Below are positions 1 through 19,108 of a DNA stretch of 19,407 bases, in pieces. Origin of the DNA: a virus. Lineage: Duplodnaviria; Heunggongvirae; Uroviricota; Caudoviricetes. The translations under genes and the position numbers were made by a program. Position 1 is the stretch's first letter; every line of letters starts with the position of its first letter. The notes under the pieces are model-generated. The model saw nothing but the letters and a program-made list of their open reading frames with translations, did not search any database and was not told where the DNA came from. Where the stretch lies: IMG/VR virus record IMGVR_UViG_2619619132_000004. One strand, written 5' to 3'.

Positions 1-199
1 CACCGTATACCTTGTGATTTTCATCGTATACGCGCTGTATCTCTTTCTTCAGCCAGTCATCGCGCTGCGCACGGGCACTGCGTTTATCCGGATGATGTCG
101 CTGTTGCTGACAGTGGTAATACGTTGACGGGGCAATATGTAGTTCACTGCATACCGGTCCGACCCCGTACAGCTTACGCAGCTTATCCAGCAGTGGCAT
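1..199 (-). CDS. IS3-family transposase OrfB, N-terminal fragment (continues beyond window)
   Basis: Minus-strand translation from ATG at 199: [66 protein letters not shown], typical IS3-family OrfB N-terminus. Start overlaps the orfA stop. Confidence 0.8.
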   Translation of the reverse strand, partial: MPLLDKLRKLYGVGPVCSELHIAPSTYYHCQQQRHHPDKRSARAQRDDWLKKEIQRVYDENHKVYG

Positions 200-525
200 C
201 ACTTTTTCCAGAGGCGGTCGAACTCCGCCTTCGCAAAATAAGCGGAAGCCTGGCGAAGGATATCGTTACTGCGGCGCAGTTCACGATTTTCACGTTCCAG
301 CTCTTTCAGACGCTGACGTTCAGCGGTGGTGAGCCCTCCATCACCGCCCCCGGTATCCCGCTCATGCTGGCGAACCCAGACACGCAGAGTCTCCGGCGTA
401 CAGCCAATCTTTGGAGCAATGGAACAAATTGTCGCCCATTGTGAGTCATATTCGCTCTGACTTTCCAGAACCATACGGACTGCCCGTTGACGGACTTCGG
501 GGGAAAAACGAGTATTTTTAGTCAT
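199..525 (-). CDS. IS3-family transposase OrfA (HTH plus leucine-zipper, 108 aa)
   Basis: ORF track protein [19 protein letters not shown]...[39 protein letters not shown], recognised as IS629/IS3-family OrfA. Confidence 0.85.
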
Positions 526-576: not shown

Positions 577-2013
577 TCAGTTTTCCCTGGCTTTATTGAG
601 TTCCTCCCTCAGTTCCTGGTATTTCGTTTCTACAGATGAGACATTTTCCAGTGATTGCGTGTCCTCATTATGTTTAACTGGAATTTCTTCCACTGATTCA
701 GGCGCTGCCTGTTCATTAGCCATTGTGTCCGATGTTTGTTGCTTTTCTTCATCGCCATGTTTTCCTTCTGCTGTTCCGCGCTGCGGCATCGGTGCTGATG
801 AGCGACCGCAGGCAATTTCCACGATTTCCGGATCCGGGTTAGCGTGATCGGTTTCGGTCAACACTTTGTTGAGATATTCAGTCACGCGTGCCGGGATGGC
901 CTCAATGCCGATTGGTGCTTCTTTCACGGAAGCCACCACAATGGCGCGGGAATAATCCAGCCCACCGGGCATGGCGATAAATTTGTCGCGAAAAACAGAA
1001 AAGGGCGGCTTATTCTCTGACACGATTTCTTCAACGCGTTTTGCGTGTGCTGGGTGCAGGTTATAAATATCCACATCCATTGAACGGGCCAGAACGCCGG
1101 TGGCTACATCTCGTGCGAGTGATGTCTTATCATGTTTGAATCCTTCACCACGATCGGTAATATTTCCGCCGCCAGCGTTAGCACCGGAAGGCGTACGGGT
1201 AATGCCTGAAACATAATTTCCGTTCTGCCATTCTTTTGTCAGCAGGCCCTGATCAAGGTAGTCAGTTTTCATCCAGGTGGAAATGAACTTGTCGAATTCA
1301 GCCGGGCTGATGCGATGATTTGCAGAGTGGGGGAATGCTTTCCCTACAGATTCAGCCAGGCGACTAAGGTGATAGTTCGTCAGTTTATCCAGTTCATGAT
1401 GCGCGGCGCGCACAGCAGTAAGCAGGCTCTGAAGGTAACTGTCCTCTGTGTCCATCTCCATACGGATCACGTTATTGCGTTGTTCTGGTGTGGCATGATG
1501 CCGGTATTTTCCATCTTCATCTTTGCTGAATAAGAAGAGGTGAAGGAAGCGATGAGTAAGGCTCAGAGTGGCGACGGGAATTTCACACTCAGAACAGTCA
1601 TCGTCGCTGTCCGGGGATTCGTTTTTCTCCACATCATCCGGAATAGTTCCGTCCGGGTCATCGTTGTCATCGCCAGCAGTTGTGGCATCTTCACCGTTGA
1701 TGTTGTCATTGAAGGGTATAGCCATCATGGTGATGCCATCTTCCCCGCCTTTTTCATAGCGGTTGCAGAATTCAGTATCAAACACGCCTTCCGGTGGAAG
1801 GTCATTCACGACGGGGAAATTTACGCGAACGGGTTTTTTGAAATCATCCTCGTCGTAGCCTGCATCGTCCATGGCTGCAATGCAGCGGGAAACTGCGACA
1901 GAAAGTTTTCTGGCATCAGCCCAGAAAAAACCGCCTTTGATGCCAAGGCGTTTTCTGACTTTATCGTTTTTTGCTTCGCAGTGTAGTGCAAAAGTCTGTT
2001 TATCAGCGCTCAT
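577..2013 (-). CDS. recE: Exodeoxyribonuclease VIII (RecE)-like protein, N-terminal about 478 aa only; 3' end replaced by IS terminus
   Basis: Long stretches match Rac RecE as I recall it (NFPVVNDLP; [16 protein letters not shown]; [16 protein letters not shown]; [11 protein letters not shown]; YQELRxEL). The stop codon is the terminal TGA of the IS at 577..579, so the nuclease domain expected downstream is absent. RBS GAGG upstream of ATG at 2013. Confidence 0.7.
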
Positions 2014-2120: not shown

Positions 2121-2507
2121 TCAGTGGAAGGTTGCCTGGTTTGCTGTTTTGTGAGTTGTTTTTCCCTTTTCGTGCTGGCATTCAGAGCAGTCGCACTCAG
2201 AATTTTCTCTTGCAAATTCAAGAGCCTGCGCCAGTGTATGGATTTGTTGTGCTCCAATGTTGCTTCTGACGACTTCACATGCAGCATGAATATATGGGCT
2301 TGGTGTTTTGCCATTTAACCCACATGAAACCAAACGACTGTCTTTATATTCGTTATTTCCAACTTCTGTAAGCACTGAAAAAGAAAATACAAAGTCGATT
2401 TTGTATTCTTTGCATATTTTACTGATGCGTTCTGCAATTTCTTTGAGTTCATTTATTGCATCAGGACTGGTTTCGGAAAATATTTCATTTTGCGCAAGTT
2501 CTTTCAT
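2121..2507 (-). CDS. Hypothetical protein with Cys-rich C-terminus (SECDCSECQHEKGK)
   Basis: 128 aa ORF in the leftward early operon, AT-rich codon usage, weak RBS. No family recognised with confidence. Confidence 0.45.
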   Translation of the reverse strand: MKELAQNEIFSETSPDAINELKEIAERISKICKEYKIDFVFSFSVLTEVGNNEYKDSRLVSCGLNGKTPSPYIHAACEVVRSNIGAQQIHTLAQALEFARENSECDCSECQHEKGKTTHKTANQATFH

Positions 2508-2580
2508 TTTGATTTTTCCGTGATTGATAATTAATGCGGTTTTTATTTCGGCAGATATGGAAGGTGTATTTTATTACTCG

Positions 2581-2802
2581 TCACAACGACTCTGCTTTTA
2601 CGGGTAAGCCATCGCGCCCGATGAAAACTTTAATCATGCAGTCGGTAATGCATGTTTTTGTTGTGAAGTTACGAATATAGAGTTTTCTCTTTTCAATATT
2701 GTTTGCTGAAGCGATATATGTCCGACCTTCATGAAGAACATAATCGCCAGGCGTCACGCACTGACGTGGTATTTCATCAGTTCCGAAGTGATGAGCAATC
2801 AT
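2581..2802 (-). CDS. kilR: KilR-like small protein (73 aa), putative cell-division inhibitor
   Basis: ORF starting [15 protein letters not shown] at ATG 2802 with GGAG RBS 8 nt upstream; 73 aa. Length and position (between recE and the immunity region) fit Rac KilR. Only weak similarity to DicB. Confidence 0.5.
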
Positions 2803-2978
2803 AATTATCTCCATTTTCACAAATGAACTTTGTTGATGCGGTGCCTGGTGCCTCCAGGTGGCGTTAACCAGTTAACAATTAACGCCGGGTCAGGGGACGA
2901 TGACTTTCCGTGACATCCTGTCGGTTTAACTGTTCCGCGTGCGCTGAGCCGCATTCACCGCATCACAAAATTCACTTT

Positions 2979-3040
2979 AAAAAGGGCGGACATCAGCAAT
3001 CGGCAAACCGATATCCGCCAAGGGTTACACACAGCAATGT
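2979..3040 (-). ncRNA. Candidate DicF-like small RNA with intrinsic terminator
   Basis: Minus-strand sequence ...UUGGCGGAUAUCGGUUUGCCGAUUGCUGAUGUCCGCCCUUUUU resembles the DicF 3' half (UUGGCGGUAUCAG...CUGCCGCCCUUUUU) in sequence and architecture. Lies about 180 nt upstream of the KilR-like gene in a 430 bp ORF-free region. 5' end is approximate. Confidence 0.4.
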
Positions 3041-3259
3041 TGTTATTCACAACCGGAAGCGCACGGTCGAAGAAATCTAACGACAATCCTTCTATGGGAA
3101 AGAGTCTTCGCCTCGCGCTTTCGTGTAGTACCCTGGCTTTTCAGGGTAATGTCTGTTCAGTAAAGTGAGAGTGCCGGAACTCACCCGTGTCCGGCGCACG
3201 ATCTCCACCTCACCCGTGGAGAACTCCTCAACTACAAACCCCGTAAGGAGAGTGAATTT

Positions 3260-3469
3260 ATGACACAAGAAGAAAAAGTGATGTTTCTGATGCGGCTGGC
3301 TGTCGATACCTACAATACACAATTCAGGGAGAAAGATATACCTCAAAAGGCAGTTCCTGCCGCGGTAGATAAGGGCGGTGCTATTGCCGTATTTTACGAT
3401 GCATTTGAATCATTTTTTGATGAAAAACTCGACGCTGTTAGCGACTTCGGAACATCGAGTAATAAATAA
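3260..3469 (+). CDS. Hypothetical small protein (69 aa), opposite orientation to the surrounding early-left operon
   Basis: AAGGAG RBS 9 nt upstream of ATG 3260; followed by an intrinsic terminator at 3488..3522. Confidence 0.5.
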   Translation: MTQEEKVMFLMRLAVDTYNTQFREKDIPQKAVPAAVDKGGAIAVFYDAFESFFDEKLDAVSDFGTSSNK

Positions 3470-3797
3470 CGTTCATTACGGTTCTTAAACAACAATCAGT
3501 GGGCTTGATGTTGTTCTTTTCAAGCTCACTTGCCATCACTTCCATTATTCTTGCGCTTACACGAATTATTTGGTGGCTGTAAGCGACGCAACTATCGCTG
3601 ATATTGCTGTTTATTTCTATTACTTCATTTTCACTGGCGGCGCTAAATTTGGATATGCCGTTTCCATTGTCCTGTTTCAGTGCTGTTTCCGCTATCCGGA
3701 TGCGTTCCTGCGTTGCGGAATTTGGGCTAAGTCGATAAACCTGTCTGGCATCTTCCAGAAGCAGGGCGATAATGTGCTTCAGTTCTGTTTCATTCAT
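3438..3797 (-). CDS. Hypothetical protein (120 aa)
   Basis: ATG at 3797 (MNETELKHIIALL...) with GGAG RBS. In the leftward operon downstream of N. Its 3' end overlaps the convergent plus ORF and the hairpin. Confidence 0.45.
   Translation of the reverse strand: MNETELKHIIALLLEDARQVYRLSPNSATQERIRIAETALKQDNGNGISKFSAASENEVIEINSNISDSCVAYSHQIIRVSARIMEVMASELEKNNIKPTDCCLRTVMNVIYYSMFRSR
3488..3522 (+). terminator. Rho-independent terminator candidate (stem AACAACAATCA / TGATGTTGTT, then CTTTTC)
   Basis: Inverted repeat with 7 nt loop followed by a short T-run, immediately after the 3260..3469 ORF. Confidence 0.45.
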
Positions 3798-3828
3798 AGT
3801 TAACTCCGGTAGTTGCAATTTATTAATA

Positions 3829-4014
3829 TCAGGCGGTCAGCTTTTTAAGCTTCTGAACTGCTTTATTCATTTCATCCATACAGTCGATGAATTCGTCCAG
3901 TTTAAGCTGCATTTTTCCGGCGGCCTGAAGAATTTCAAGTTTTAAGGGCGCAAGTTTTTTGTTGTAATCGACGCAGGTTATTAACTCGCGGCCAGTAATA
4001 TTTTGGCTTGGCAC
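3829..4014 (-). CDS. Possible small ORF (61 aa; alternative 27 aa start at 3912)
   Basis: ORF track only; overlaps the 3' end of the 3935..4219 gene in another frame; weak RBS. Confidence 0.2.
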   Translation of the reverse strand: MPSQNITGRELITCVDYNKKLAPLKLEILQAAGKMQLKLDEFIDCMDEMNKAVQKLKKLTA

Positions 4015-5237: not shown

Positions 5238-5945
5238 TTACCAGCTATGTGATGACCAGAACACTCGCCCTATGATTCTTACGTTTTTGTAGAATTCTTC
5301 TCTGTTCATTACTTCATCAGGATACTCTTCGCGGTTTATCGATCTGATAATTACCGATGTTGGCGTGGCTATGAGCGTTTTTACCCTTAACAAATCAGCT
5401 TGGCAAATTGCATATGTTTTACCATCCCTGATGCTCGTATCTTGCGTGTTTACCCCCACCACATCACCATCATGGAGTGTTGGCTCCATGCTTTGCCCAA
5501 CAACCCTGACCAACTTTGCCGCTTTTTCTGGAACTCCCATTTTTTTCAGGTAATAGCGCCTAAAAACTAGAGAGAATTCTGCGGACTCCTCCAATGCACA
5601 ACTTCCTCCGCCAGCTGAAAGTGAAATATTTAGAAGGGGGAGCGCAACAAATTCGTCATTATCATTTTGATGATCATCCCAGGCGATAGCTTTTAAAGAT
5701 GATTCCCGAGCATTAGATGGCTCTTCTGCGCTCTGTGGTCTCATTGACCCTATACCAGAGCTTAGCCATTCAGGGCGAACTCTTAACGCGTTGGCTAATT
5801 CGACCATTTTACGTGATCCGGTTGTTTTACCAGATGACATCTTTTGTATGGCTGGTTGTGATACCCCCACCATGTCTGCAAGTTGTGCTTGTGACAACCC
5901 GGCTGAACTCATGGCGGCATTTAGTCTTTCTGCGAATGTTTTCAT
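5238..5945 (-). CDS. cI: CI-type prophage repressor (N-terminal HTH, C-terminal S24 LexA-like peptidase)
   Basis: HTH segment LSQAQLADMVGVSQPAIQKM; Ala-Gly cleavage site (SLSAGGG); GQSMEP serine motif and downstream Lys. Divergent from cro. Confidence 0.85.
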   Translation of the reverse strand: MKTFAERLNAAMSSAGLSQAQLADMVGVSQPAIQKMSSGKTTGSRKMVELANALRVRPEWLSSGIGSMRPQSAEEPSNARESSLKAIAWDDHQNDNDEFVALPLLNISLSAGGGSCALEESAEFSLVFRRYYLKKMGVPEKAAKLVRVVGQSMEPTLHDGDVVGVNTQDTSIRDGKTYAICQADLLRVKTLIATPTSVIIRSINREEYPDEVMNREEFYKNVRIIGRVFWSSHSW

Positions 5946-10844: not shown

Positions 10845-10984
10845 ATTCATTACGATATGGGAATTCCCATATCGGGTAAAAACGGTTTGCGGTAAAGCGA
10901 GAGTTAAGCAGAATTGCTGCGGGTGCTTGAGGCTGTCTGCCTCGGGCATGCCACCGTAAGGCAGACAGAGAAAAACCCCAGTTA

Positions 10985-11050
10985 ACATTACGCGTCCTGC
11001 AAGACGCCTAACATTAATCTGAGGCCAATTTCATGCTAGACACATGTAGG
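10985..11050 (-). ncRNA. Sok-like antisense RNA (type I antitoxin); approximate position
   Basis: Placed by analogy with hok/sok loci, antisense to the mok start and hok leader. Boundaries not determined from sequence. Confidence 0.35.
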
Positions 11051-11245
11051 TTAGCCTCTTACGCGCCGAAAGGCAAGGAGAAGCAGGCTATGAAGCAGCA
11101 AAAGGCGATGTTAGTCGCCCTGATCGTCATCTGTATTACCGTCGTAGTGACGGCACTGGTAACGAGGAAAGACCTCTGCGAGGTACGAATCCGAACCGGT
11201 CAGACGGAGGTTGCTGTCTTCACAGCTTACAAACCTGAGGAGTAA
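11033..11245 (+). CDS. mok-like overlapping reading frame (in frame with and containing hok)
   Basis: ORF track 11033..11245 begins upstream of hok in the same frame, as in hok/sok loci. Confidence 0.5.
   Translation: MLDTCRLASYAPKGKEKQAMKQQKAMLVALIVICITVVVTALVTRKDLCEVRIRTGQTEVAVFTAYKPEE
11090..11245 (+). CDS. hok: Hok/Gef-family type I toxin (51 aa)
   Basis: MKQQKAMLVALIVICITVVVTALVTRKDLCEVRIRTGQTEVAVFTAYKPEE matches Hok (transmembrane helix then RKxLCEVRIxxGxTEVAAF). Leader 10921..10968 resembles the R1 hok mRNA 5' end; the 5' element UGCGGGUG (10918..10925) is complementary to the 3' element CACCCGCA (11303..11310). Confidence 0.85.
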   Translation: MKQQKAMLVALIVICITVVVTALVTRKDLCEVRIRTGQTEVAVFTAYKPEE

Positions 11246-12973: not shown

Positions 12974-13056
12974 ACGCCAGCAAAATCTGGCGTCGGGATT
13001 AGGAACCCCGGATAGAAACCGCGACAGAGACACGCCGCGAGCGTGTTTTTTATTGT
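12974..13056 (+). ncRNA. Candidate small RNA or attenuated leader (about 80 nt) ending at an intrinsic terminator
   Basis: No ORF; 5' hairpin CGCCAG-CAAAAT-CTGGCG (12973..12990); terminator ACACGC-CGCGA-GCGTGT then U6 (13030..13051); downstream of the promoter at 12938. Confidence 0.4.
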
Positions 13057-13214
13057 CGTATGCACACGCACATCTGAATTATGGTGGGGCGTATAGGGGA
13101 GCTGAAAAGCTCGCCGGTTGGTTTCCCGGTAGTTCCTAACCCTGTACGTCTCGCCACCCGATGATTAGGAACCTGACGGTGGTGATAGTTTAGAAACCAC
13201 TCGAGGGCGTCATT

Positions 13215-16851: not shown

Positions 16852-17114
16852 TATCCGTTCAACGGGAATGTTACATACCTCACAATTAAGTCAGTTGAAT
16901 GTTGTCTGCCCGGATGAGAATTTGTTAGAAAAAACTGCATGGTGAATCCCCCTGAGCGGAGGGGCGACTGGTGACGGTATAATCTCTGATTATCAAAACG
17001 AGAATGACGCGGGTTTAGTGGCACCGGGCTGAACTCACCGGGAGGCACCCGGCACCATGCAATGGCACATAGCGCCACTCTCCAGCCCCTCTCCGGAGGG
17101 GCTTTCTTATGGAC

Positions 17115-17335: not shown

Positions 17336-19108
17336 ATGGCATTTAAACACTATGATGTTGTCAGGGCGGCGTCGCCGTCAGACCTTGCGAAACGAATAAC
17401 TCAAAAACTGAAGGAAGGGGGGCAGCCTTATGGTAGTGCGCTGATTTCGACAGCTGGTTATGGTGCGGAGTTCATCCAGCCAGTTGTGAGTGAGGGGAGC
17501 ATCTCATCACCAGAGGAGCCAGGCAACCGTCCGACGACCTCAGCGCCTTCTGTTGCGCCAGAATATTACTATGTGATCGCGCTTGCTGGTCAGTCCAATG
17601 GTATGTCATACGGTGAGGGACTGCCATTACCGGATACATTCGACAGCCCTGATCCACGTATTAAACAGTTAGCGCGTCGCAGTACGGTGACACCGGGCGG
17701 TGCAGCATGCAAATATAACGACATCATTCCGGCGGACCATTGTCTGCATGATGTGCAGGACATGAGCCGTCTTAACCATCCGAAAGCGGACCTGTCAAAG
17801 GGGCAGTACGGAACCGTGGGGCAGGGGCTGCATATCGCCAAAAAACTGCTGCCGTTTATACCGGCGAATGCGGGCATTCTGCTGGTTCCGTGCTGTCGTG
17901 GTGGTTCAGCGTTCACCACCGGAGCTGATGGCACATACAGTGACGCGAGTGGCGCCTCGGAGAATTCAACCCGCTGGGGTGTGGACAAGCCGCTGTATAA
18001 GGACCTTATCGGTCGAACAAAAGCGGCACTGGAGAAGAACCCGAAAAATGTGCTGTTTGCCGTGGTGTGGATGCAGGGGGAATTTGATTTTGGCGGTACG
18101 CCGGCAAATCATGCCGCACAGTTTGGTGCGCTGGTTGATAAATTCCGTGCAGACCTGGCGGATATGGCAGGCCAGTGCGTCGGTGGCTCTGCTGGCGGTG
18201 TTCCCTGGATATGCGGGGACACGACGTATTTCTGGAAGCAGAAGAACGAATCCACGTACCAGACGGTGTACGGCAGCTATAAAAATAAAACGGAAAAGAA
18301 TATCCATTTCGTACCGTTCATGACCGATGAGAACGGGGTGAATGTGCCGACGAACAAACCGGAAGAAGACCCGGACATTCCGGGTATCGGTTATTACGGT
18401 TCGAAATGGCGTGACAGCTCAGCCACCTGGACGTCACAGGACAGGGCGAGCCATTTCAGTTCATGGGCTCGCCGTGGGATTATTTCCGACCGTCTGGCAA
18501 CGGCGATTCTGAGCTGCGCGGGTAAGTCTTCTGCGTTTGTTAATGGTACTGCCGGGGTGGTTGTTCCAGACAGACCGGTTACCACCTCAGAGTCTGTAAT
18601 TTTTTACGATGCCAAAAAAGCTACAGACAATCAGCTGAAACCCTATGGCTGGGACGGTGTGTATGGCAGGCGCACACTGGTTGATGACAGCGGCAATAAA
18701 GCTCTGCGAATTGAGAAAAATAACAGCGCGAAATCCTGGTCAATGTACTGTGATATTGCTGCAGACAAGGCAAAACTTTTACTGGAAAAAGGCGGGGAAA
18801 TTGCTGTCCGGTTTAAAATCCCCGAAAACGTCAATCTTGAGACAACCAGAAACAAGTATGCCTTTGGTTTGTACTGGCGAATAGCGGAATGGCCGGGTGA
18901 GGGTGGTGAAGGCCATCTGAGTTCTTTCTTTGTCCAGACAGATAAAGCCAGTATTAATGTTGCATACCATCATACAGTTAATCAACAAAAAGAACTTGGC
19001 ACGTTTGGCGCATTCGACCATGACTGGCATACGCTTGCATTTAAATTTAAGGGCAGTAACAGCATTAATGAACCGCCCCGGGTTTCCTGGAGAGTGTTTT
19101 ATCTGTGA
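17336..19108 (+). CDS. NanS-p-like SGNH/SASA-family sialate O-acetylesterase, 3'-truncated by IS insertion
   Basis: GGGAGG RBS; GQSN motif (IALAGQSNGMSYGEG) typical of SASA/SGNH esterases; position downstream of Q as for nanS-p in Stx-type prophages. The last 13 codons and the stop lie inside the IS that begins at 19069. Confidence 0.65.
   Translation: MAFKHYDVVRAASPSDLAKRITQKLKEGGQPYGSALISTAGYGAEFIQPVVSEGSISSPEEPGNRPTTSAPSVAPEYYYVIALAGQSNGMSYGEGLPLPDTFDSPDPRIKQLARRSTVTPGGAACKYNDIIPADHCLHDVQDMSRLNHPKADLSKGQYGTVGQGLHIAKKLLPFIPANAGILLVPCCRGGSAFTTGADGTYSDASGASENSTRWGVDKPLYKDLIGRTKAALEKNPKNVLFAVVWMQGEFDFGGTPANHAAQFGALVDKFRADLADMAGQCVGGSAGGVPWICGDTTYFWKQKNESTYQTVYGSYKNKTEKNIHFVPFMTDENGVNVPTNKPEEDPDIPGIGYYGSKWRDSSATWTSQDRASHFSSWARRGIISDRLATAILSCAGKSSAFVNGTAGVVVPDRPVTTSESVIFYDAKKATDNQLKPYGWDGVYGRRTLVDDSGNKALRIEKNNSAKSWSMYCDIAADKAKLLLEKGGEIAVRFKIPENVNLETTRNKYAFGLYWRIAEWPGEGGEGHLSSFFVQTDKASINVAYHHTVNQQKELGTFGAFDHDWHTLAFKFKGSNSINEPPRVSWRVFYL

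Follow-up and report, generated by a model that had tools for sequence, protein, structure and literature searches.

We examined a 19,407-nt stretch of DNA (the window; IMG/VR record IMGVR_UViG_2619619132_000004), which is from a lambdoid prophage of Escherichia coli; the chromosome of strain ML35 matches it at 99.9% identity over positions 2500-3900. On its minus strand, in the 5' leader of the division inhibitor gene kil, the window encodes a putative small RNA (2979..3070). A preliminary description had proposed a DicF-like RNA in this place. A small RNA with its own terminator does lie there, but it is not DicF: by sequence comparison, it is an unannotated allele of KilS, a published small RNA, and the locus itself is not new. 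We believe, with a probability of roughly 0.7, that the element is an Hfq-associated small RNA of the Rac-type kil leader, that it is a member of a mosaic DicF/KilS family of small RNAs in lambdoid prophages, and that it has the processing, trans, and cis roles that we propose below. What appears to be new is a set of relationships. DicF and KilS are forms of one cassette, and the arm of KilS duplicates, from a mapped RNase E site onwards, the segment of RprA that has been validated to bind csgD and dgcM. In the literature that we searched, we found no account of the kinship of the DicF and KilS cassettes or of the seed identity with RprA, and the paper that describes KilS names neither DicF nor RprA.

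In the RefSeq record for E. coli K-12, kilS (b4833, 1418405-1418502) is annotated as a noncoding RNA of the Rac prophage, directly upstream of kilR. KilS was predicted from Hfq RIL-seq (RNA interaction by ligation and sequencing) and was confirmed by a northern blot, with a signal that depended on Hfq; yncL is one of its partners (Bar et al. 2021, PMC8175672). The window element is identical to K-12 kilS at 78 of 106 alignment columns (74% overall; local alignment score of 75). The two share the 5' block GUGCGC(C/U)UCCGGUUGU, the arm AAUAAC(G/A)ACAUUGCUGUGUGUA, and the 3' strand of the terminator (GCUGAUGUCCGCCC plus U5), as well as the leader downstream. They also share their location, which is directly upstream of a KilR-family gene and inside its 5' leader: the window RNA ends 177 nt upstream of the ATG of kil, on the same strand. 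The alleles differ in the body of the hairpin, which is swapped and 8 nt shorter in the window (AUAUCGGUUUGCCGAUU vs. CAUCAGUUUUUUUCUUGAAGUUCGG), in the end of the arm (GUAACC in the window and GUAGUC in K-12), and in the sequence around the mapped K-12 transcription start site (TSS), which is not alike in the window. Of 5,426 complete E. coli genomes, 82 carry the KilS-type core of the window, O104:H4 outbreak strains among them; none of the 82 has it annotated. Related copies are found in Shiga toxin (Stx) and other phages.

The predicted RNA is about 92 nt long and ends in a U5 tract. In K-12, the TSS of KilS is at 1418502 (nt 1; Thomason, as given in Supplementary Table 6 of Bar 2021, PMC8175672), and by homology to this TSS, which is 6 nt upstream of GTGCGC, we placed the 5' end of the window RNA at 3070. 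The intrinsic terminator (2979..3019, minus strand) has a 13-bp stem (GGCGGAUAUCGGU/GCUGAUGUCCGCC), a 9-nt loop, and then CUUUUU (2984..2979). Its hairpin (3019..2985) has a dG of -27.7 (z = -3.7), and none of 200 shuffled sequences was as stable. Immediately 5' of the terminator is the arm GUGAAUAACAACAUUGCUGUGUGUAACCCUU (3020..3050), which is unpaired in the centroid fold and is the predicted seed.

Part of this arm, AUUGCUGUGUGUA (3038..3026, minus strand), is identical to nt 60-72 of RprA. The match between the window allele and RprA comprises 13 contiguous nucleotides, or 25 of 27 positions if gaps are allowed, and it beats all of 5,000 shuffles (Gumbel p = 1.7e-5). The K-12 allele is closer still: nt 23-48 of KilS match nt 51-75 of RprA at 24 of 26 positions, 16 of them contiguous (Gumbel p ~1.6e-7, again from 5,000 shuffles). 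Some alleles, including that of locus L130, which is discussed below, have 20 contiguous nucleotides in common with RprA (in one allele, 28 of 30 aligned).

The arm also begins at the same point as processed RprA. A processed species of RprA has been reported as RprA60-105 (PMC3465796), and a short RprA is released by RNase E (PMC6202311). In our numbering, position 60 of RprA is the A of AUUGCUG. In K-12 KilS, only one RNase E site has been mapped, at 1418471 (Clarke 2014, via Supplementary Table 6 of Bar 2021, PMC8175672). We find that this is nt 32, within AACGAC|AUUGCUG, which is exactly at the start of the arm. Processed KilS and processed RprA would therefore begin alike. The window allele keeps the context of this site (AACAAC|AUUGCUG), and we infer that it would be cleaved by RNase E at 3038..3039.

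In RprA, nt 60-97 pair with site I in the csgD 5' untranslated region (UTR), where GCUG meets CAGC at -90..-87, and dgcM is bound by nt 45-75; both interactions were established with compensatory mutations (Mika et al. 2012, PMC3465796). We computed pairing energies for the arm alone against sliding windows of the target, with 100 shuffles as the control. (With the full-length RNAs, RNAduplex gave meaningless duplexes of about 100 nt.) On csgD site Ib, the K-12 KilS arm forms 16 contiguous pairs (-99..-82) with an energy of -27.2 kcal/mol, and 1 of 100 shuffles was as good. The window arm forms 14 contiguous pairs, one of them G-U (-97..-84), plus CCCU:AGGG, with an energy of -25.1 kcal/mol, and none of 100 shuffles was as good. 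The corresponding values for RprA itself are -24.9 kcal/mol and 2 of 100. The KilS arms are at least as good on this site as RprA is, and the duplex with the window arm includes GCUG/CAGC (-90..-87). In the CACUGC alleles, CACUGCUGUGUGUAGU is complementary to csgD -98..-83 without a mismatch, with 16 Watson-Crick pairs. If at most one G-U pair is allowed, then 2.7 Mb of unrelated DNA contained no site with 14 or more pairs for the window arm and one such site for the K-12 arm. We predict that these RNAs regulate csgD via the RprA-like arm, and this prediction is well founded in the sequence.

Several observations weigh against our interpretation. RIL-seq of K-12 found only three interactions for KilS, and csgD was not one of them (PMC8175672). 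If G-U pairs are allowed freely, then the arm, which is rich in G and U, is promiscuous, and sites of 14 or more pairs occur at about 16 per Mb. The change from GUAGUC to GUAACC shortens the match to csgD from 16 to 14 pairs and reduces the identity to RprA to 13 nt. The matches to dgcM and yncL (8-10 pairs) are at chance level, at about 90 sites per Mb, and the energy tests are weak; in these tests, the pairing of the KilS arms with rpoS, dgcM, or ftsZ could not be told apart from that of shuffles. A promoter scan found no sigma-70-like promoter for the small RNA on the minus strand, and the extended -10 of K-12, TGtTAAATT, reads CGTTAGATT in the window. As to csgD and RIL-seq, we suspect that csgD is poorly expressed in the growth conditions that were used for KilS.

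The likeness to RprA (RF00034) is local. The window element has in common with RprA an arm that lies immediately 5' of the terminator hairpin, that RNase E would expose at the corresponding position, and that is complementary to the validated csgD site Ib. It differs from RprA in lacking the 5' hairpins, the region that activates rpoS and that pairs with hdeD and csgD site II (nt 28-50), and the chromosomal locus. The RF00034 model gives 22.4 bits, as compared to a threshold of 70; only nt 51-72 of RprA are common to the window; and no pairing with rpoS is predicted.

A second RprA-like module, UGCUGUGUGUAGUCUUGGCGGUACCAG...CUGGUACCGCCCUUUUU, is found in the prophage e14 of K-12 (NC_000913.3 1201195-1201256, minus strand, which is 2696-2757 of our locus L155). 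It lies under the doubtful coding sequence ymfH, upstream of xisE, and is preceded by a domain that resembles the kil leader and STnc100. Five other loci that we collected also contain it, and it is found in 1,845 of the 5,426 E. coli genomes as well as in representatives of Superficieibacter, Raoultella, and Pseudocitrobacter. No Rfam family matched the e14-type loci. In K-12, "ymfH" has an sRNA-like score of 0.09-0.11, near that of dicF (Supplementary Table 1 of Bar 2021, PMC8175672). The e14 module is probably an unnamed Hfq-dependent small RNA.

We now turn to DicF. The preliminary description had itself named a scan with the Rfam covariance model for DicF (RF00039) as the check on its proposal, and at the curated gathering score, this model has no match in the window. 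A permissive local scan of positions 2700-3650 gave 29.2 bits (threshold 48, E = 3.8e-4) at 2984..3033 on the minus strand, as well as sub-threshold matches to STnc100 (2788..2982) and RprA (2975..3091). If we align the minus strand to ydfC-dicF-dicB from K-12, both flanks are homologous: the upstream block, and the region from CCGCCCUUUUU to the start of the downstream gene. Between them, about 58 nt of other sequence in the window stand where K-12 has the body of DicF and the roughly 110 nt that precede it. The 5' seed of DicF (UUUCUGGUGAC; UUUCUGGUGACGUUUGG, which pairs with xylR, pykA, and manX) is replaced by the KilS arm, and the ftsZ-antisense loop ACUCCGUGA is not present in the window element. 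In DicF, this 3' region pairs with the ribosome binding site of ftsZ, as demonstrated by compensatory mutations (PMC5069750). The duplex between the window RNA and the translation-initiation region of ftsZ is no better than for shuffles (z = -0.3). Because even the known DicF-ftsZ site is not significant in the same test (z = 0; z = -1.6), negative results of this test are weak.

To compare the two elements directly: the window element and DicF of Qin share the upstream stem and hairpins, the base of the terminator, the U-tract, and the downstream leader, and both precede a division inhibitor. But the window element has another arm, and therefore lacks the xylR/pykA/manX seed; it has another loop, and therefore lacks the ftsZ antisense; and its stem-to-terminator distance is about 110 nt shorter (81-87 nt vs. 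195-196 nt). The score, the seed, the loop, and the pairing with ftsZ rule out DicF as the identity of the RNA, although the locus is still of the DicF type. The idea that a DicF-type regulator is paired here with a second division-targeting function falls as well, because the RNA is not DicF; its pairing with ftsZ is at the level of shuffles.

We scanned IMG/VR with an exact-match pattern for the invariant sequence after the terminator, which gave at least 112 usable loci (a biased sample), and we classified these loci by arm, by hairpin body, and by the first downstream open reading frame (ORF). Among the matches listed (112 loci), there were 20 combinations of arm, hairpin, and gene. The DicF arm and DicF hairpin precede DicB in at least 70 loci; the KilS arm and K-12-type KilS hairpin precede Kil in at least 17; and the KilS arm with the window-type hairpin precedes Kil in at least 2. 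There are also mixed forms: the KilS arm with the DicF hairpin before Kil (at least 2 loci), the DicF arm and DicF hairpin before Kil (at least 2), and the KilS arm with the K-12-type KilS hairpin before DicB (at least 1). Two more types of arm, and a third downstream gene whose product begins MLNVAIEN, were found among the matches listed. All 14 of the hairpin variants that we folded keep the terminal hairpin, by way of different but compensating stems (such as GGUGG/CCACC or GGCGGGUAUC/GAUACCCGCC). It is clear from these loci that DicF and KilS form a single family of mosaics, in which the arm, the hairpin, and the downstream gene (dicB, kil, or the third type) reassort between conserved flanks, and that KilS-type elements such as the window's are members of it. 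That DicF and KilS are recombinants of one cassette explains why DicF-like matches occur beside different toxins.

Some individual loci are worth describing. In at least seven of them, dicB or kil is replaced by the third gene, whose product begins MLNVAIENQNGWNYS. Two IMG/VR contigs (L108 and L130) have a KilS/RprA-like arm joined to a DicF hairpin, with the ACUCCG loop of the ftsZ antisense, upstream of kil; we predict from these sequences that the chimeras are dual-function small RNAs. Pairings of division functions do exist elsewhere, with at least 2 loci each for DicF with Kil and for the chimera of KilS arm and DicF hairpin with Kil. Finally, two loci that are identical to kilS-kilR of the E. 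coli Rac prophage were assigned to a "Candidatus Nanosynbacter" bin (L149, JARKOR010000130.1) and to a "Proteobacteria bacterium" metagenome-assembled genome (L147). These assignments are probably due to contamination during binning.

The conserved flank upstream of the arm suggests how the RNA is made. A long irregular stem (3047..3127, minus strand) has ..CACGAAAGCGCGAGG.. in its 5' strand and ..CCGUGCGCUUCCGGUUGU.. in its 3' strand, and the 3' strand carries the 5' end of KilS; in K-12 as well, the 5' end of KilS lies on the 3' strand of this stem. The stem folds in both the window and Qin. CAACACGAAAGCGCACGG pairs with CCGUGCGCUUCCGGUUGU, and across 53 distinct sequences, there are 16 conserved pairs, of which 3 are changed on both sides. 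The distance from the stem block to the U-tract is 81-87 nt in KilS-type loci and 195-196 nt in DicF-type loci. In Qin, the 5' end of the 190-nt species of DicF is made by RNase III (PMC10448788). Given the spacing of 195-196 nt, this end lies no more than about 10 nt from where the stem block starts, on the same strand. The stem is a probable RNase III processing site. It also contains a possible -10 element (TAGATT at 3079..3074, minus strand).

Farther upstream are three conserved hairpins (3129..3221, minus strand). Two of these have the loop motif ACGGGUGAG (3221..3203 and 3194..3174), and the third is UACCCUG-AAAAGC-CAGGGUA (3148..3129). The direct repeat that was reported for this region, CTCACCCGTG, is indeed present, at 3180-3189 and 3209-3218, and each copy is the loop of one of the ACGGGUGAG hairpins. 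A repeated 10-mer within 430 nt is only marginally unexpected (we estimate that ~0.09 would be expected). Of 113 related loci, about 50 keep both copies, and Qin from K-12 is one of these. Covariation is uninformative for these hairpins because they are conserved but invariant. One related locus (L134) has a precise deletion between the two copies of the repeat, which is consistent with recombination between them.

Downstream of the small RNA, the 181 nt from the U-tract to the ATG of kil form a structured leader (2803..2983, minus strand; dG of -65 kcal/mol, z = -4.0). The leader is closed by a long-range helix (about 28 bp), in which 2978..2956 pair with 2843..2814 and which ends just 5' of the Shine-Dalgarno sequence of kil. 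Inside are the hairpins GGCGUUAA..UUAACGCC (2886..2860) and CCUGGAGGCACCAGG (2858..2844). The consensus fold of 60 distinct leaders has 39 pairs; 4 of these are changed on both sides, including 3 in the GGCGUUAA hairpin, and the closing helix varies only by changes between G-U and G-C. The preliminary description had recognized the GGCGUUAA hairpin, which is present with GGCGTTAA at 2860-2867 and TTAACGCC at 2879-2886 and has covariation in three pairs. The leader occurs in about 4,300 E. coli genomes, and its identity to the dicF-dicB spacer is 84-89%.

The leader domain also accounts for the sub-threshold match to STnc100 (RF02076; 27.8 bits with a threshold of 47, at 2788-2982). STnc100 and the kil leader have the closing helix and the CACCNGGAGGCACCNGGCACC hairpin in common. 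They differ in their setting: in the window, the domain follows the terminator of the small RNA and leads into kil, while STnc100 stands alone. The window also contains a full-length STnc100 (165 bits) at 16909-17114 on the plus strand, upstream of a 590-aa ORF (17336-19108). Given this full copy and the relative in the kil leader, STnc100-like domains look like reusable leader modules of prophages.

We propose the following model. Transcription would start at pL, or at a weak local promoter such as the one that was mapped in K-12, and would mostly stop at the terminator, which would yield the RNA of about 92 nt. RNase III, acting on the upstream stem, and RNase E, acting at AACAAC|AUUG, would trim this RNA to a form of about 60 nt. 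This account of its production, by termination and then by trimming with RNases III and E, draws on the conserved signals and on the data from K-12. The exposed 5' arm AUUGCUGUGUGUAACCCUU, the terminator, and the U-tail would bind Hfq. In trans, the arm would pair with host mRNAs that are targeted by RprA: the best candidate is site Ib in the csgD 5' UTR, and dgcM and yncL are possible targets. The outcome would be lower expression of regulators of curli and biofilm formation, without the rpoS-activating part of RprA's activity. In cis, kil would be gated by two elements, the terminator and the closed leader, which would hold it silent unless there is antitermination or read-through.

We considered three other explanations. 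If the element were an orthologue of DicF, then it would be an antisense RNA of about 53 nt that represses translation of ftsZ and that works with Kil to block division. The sub-threshold match (29.2 bits, E = 3.8e-4), the homologous flanks with a common terminator base (UUGGCGG..CCGCCCUUUUU) and a common downstream leader, and a local alignment to DicF that beats shuffles (p about 1e-4) all fit with this. Yet the score is below the gathering score and the standard scan has no match, the 5' seed and the ACUCCGUGA loop are both missing, and the pairing with ftsZ is at the level of shuffles (z = -0.3). This makes an orthologue of DicF very improbable. We see about as little reason to believe that the RNA is a competitor of RprA, which would titrate Hfq or a partner specific to RprA, or would fill RprA's sites without effect, and so dampen RprA signalling. 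The arm does have the same sequence as RprA, and the window RNA lacks nt 28-45 of RprA, which pair with csgD site II and hdeD, so site I alone might not repress; also, sites I and II are partly redundant (Mika et al. 2012, PMC3465796). But in the same study, site I was enough for regulation when site II carried mutations (PMC3465796).

The third explanation is that the element acts only in cis, so that its terminator and processing stems serve to gate kil and the RNA that is released has no activity of its own. The element's position in the 5' leader of kil, the conserved leader that closes onto the Shine-Dalgarno sequence of kil, and the lack of a promoter for the small RNA in our scan are all compatible with this. 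So is the behavior of KilS in K-12, which has few partners in RIL-seq and a low sRNA score of 0.03-0.15 (PMC8175672). On the other hand, the arm, with its 16-20 nt that are identical to RprA, is kept among alleles that differ in their hairpin loops and flanks, and it is kept in two unrelated contexts, kil and xisE of e14; a terminator alone needs no such arm. Furthermore, K-12 KilS forms chimeras on Hfq and gives an Hfq-dependent northern signal (PMC8175672), and its RNase E site precisely exposes the arm. Roles in cis and in trans are also not mutually exclusive. We consider a purely cis-acting element to be unlikely, although it is not far-fetched, and we prefer a KilS-type RNA that has both roles.

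Upstream of the small RNA, the window also contains a short gene on the opposite strand (3260..3469, plus strand), which encodes a 69-aa protein (RefSeq WP_000189936.1) and runs against the early operon. The preliminary description had predicted this gene, with its own ribosome binding site, and it is well supported. Its Shine-Dalgarno sequence is AAGGAGAG (3245-3252), RefSeq annotates it, and the protein matches phrog_2605 over its full length (69 of 69 residues, E = 1.5e-45). (It has no match in Pfam, NCBIfam, or PADLOC.) Its homologues are 63-69 aa long and diverge to 46% identity, but the N-terminus MTQEEKVMFLMRLAV is invariant. They are always on the opposite strand and immediately upstream of the DicF/KilS region, in prophages of both the kil and dicB types. 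The ratio of nonsynonymous to synonymous substitution rates (dN/dS) is 0.32-0.40, and within the first 15 codons there are 2-5 synonymous differences and no nonsynonymous ones. AlphaFold models a two-helix hairpin with a mean predicted local distance difference test (pLDDT) of 62.7, which is too uncertain for a fold search. In the Rac prophage of K-12, sieB has the equivalent position on the opposite strand. By these comparisons, the 69-aa ORF is a real gene that is conserved independently, and it occupies a position where accessory genes are often found in prophages.

A promoter scan found no plus-strand promoter for the 69-aa gene. The terminator that had been suggested for it is doubtful. 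There is an 11-bp hairpin after the gene (3498..3530, plus strand; dG of -17, z = -2.8), but it has no U-tract, it lies inside the convergent 119-aa ORF, and a terminator scan did not call it, so it is not a canonical terminator. The 69-aa and 119-aa genes overlap convergently by 32 nt (3438-3469), and the same is true in four related loci.

The early leftward operon is on the minus strand of the window. It comprises a cI-like repressor (5945..5238), an N-like gene, several small ORFs, and the 119-aa ORF (3797..3438; phrog_2982), which is convergent to the 69-aa gene. After the interval with the small RNA comes kil (2802..2581, 73 aa), then a 128-aa ORF, and then a RecE-like gene that appears to be cut short by an IS3-family element. 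That a KilR-type division inhibitor adjoins the small RNA, as had been described, is clear: kil belongs to the KilR family of FtsZ/division inhibitors (156.7 bits to NCBIfam PRK11354, with a cutoff of 92, across residues 1-72 of 73), it matches phrog_294 (E = 4.9e-36), and its RefSeq product name is "protein kil". The gap upstream of it is likewise free of genes, in that RefSeq annotates no feature between kil (2581..2802) and the 69-aa gene (3260..3469) in the 99.9%-identical chromosome; the interval contains only mechanical ORFs of 43-84 aa, all of them unannotated. Overall, nearly all of the features in the preliminary description are present, with some coordinates that are 1-2 bases off and one feature that was over-interpreted. 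In many genomes (e.g., NZ_CP023061.1 and NZ_CP027394.1), RefSeq names the 73-aa product of kil "cell division protein FtsZ", which appears to be an annotation error in which the inhibitor was confused with its target.

The IS3-family element is at positions 1-525 of the window, with an ALIL frameshift pseudoknot at 128-244 and the transposase orfA at 525..199, which we take to be IS629/IS1203-like. The RecE-like ORF (577-2013, minus strand) has 478 aa, as compared to a 2,073-nt gene (690 aa) in ML35, and it appears that the insertion cuts recE short. Elsewhere in the prophage, all on the plus strand, Rfam models matched a sok antitoxin of the hok/sok type (110 bits, 10921-11095), isrK (69 bits, 12974-13051), and a C4 antisense RNA (66 bits, 13077-13161).

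More broadly, and tentatively, lambdoid prophages may carry a modular cassette for small RNAs, which comprises a seed arm, a terminator hairpin, and a toxic gene (dicB, kil, or the third type), between conserved processing stems. One version of the arm (in KilS, in the window, and in the element under ymfH of e14) would copy the seed of RprA as processed by RNase E, and would tap the csgD/dgcM part of the RprA regulon without activating RpoS. In such a cassette, the ftsZ antisense of DicF is one version of the terminator hairpin. This is a possibility that we would not yet bet on. If it is true, then prophages mimic the seed of a core small RNA, and the 3' half of RprA and the DicF/KilS family may have a common ancestry. 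And if KilS represses csgD, then curli and biofilm formation would be under post-transcriptional modulation by prophages that many E. coli carry, those of the O104:H4 outbreak lineage among them, and this would offer a clear example of a mobile element that copies the seed of a host small RNA.

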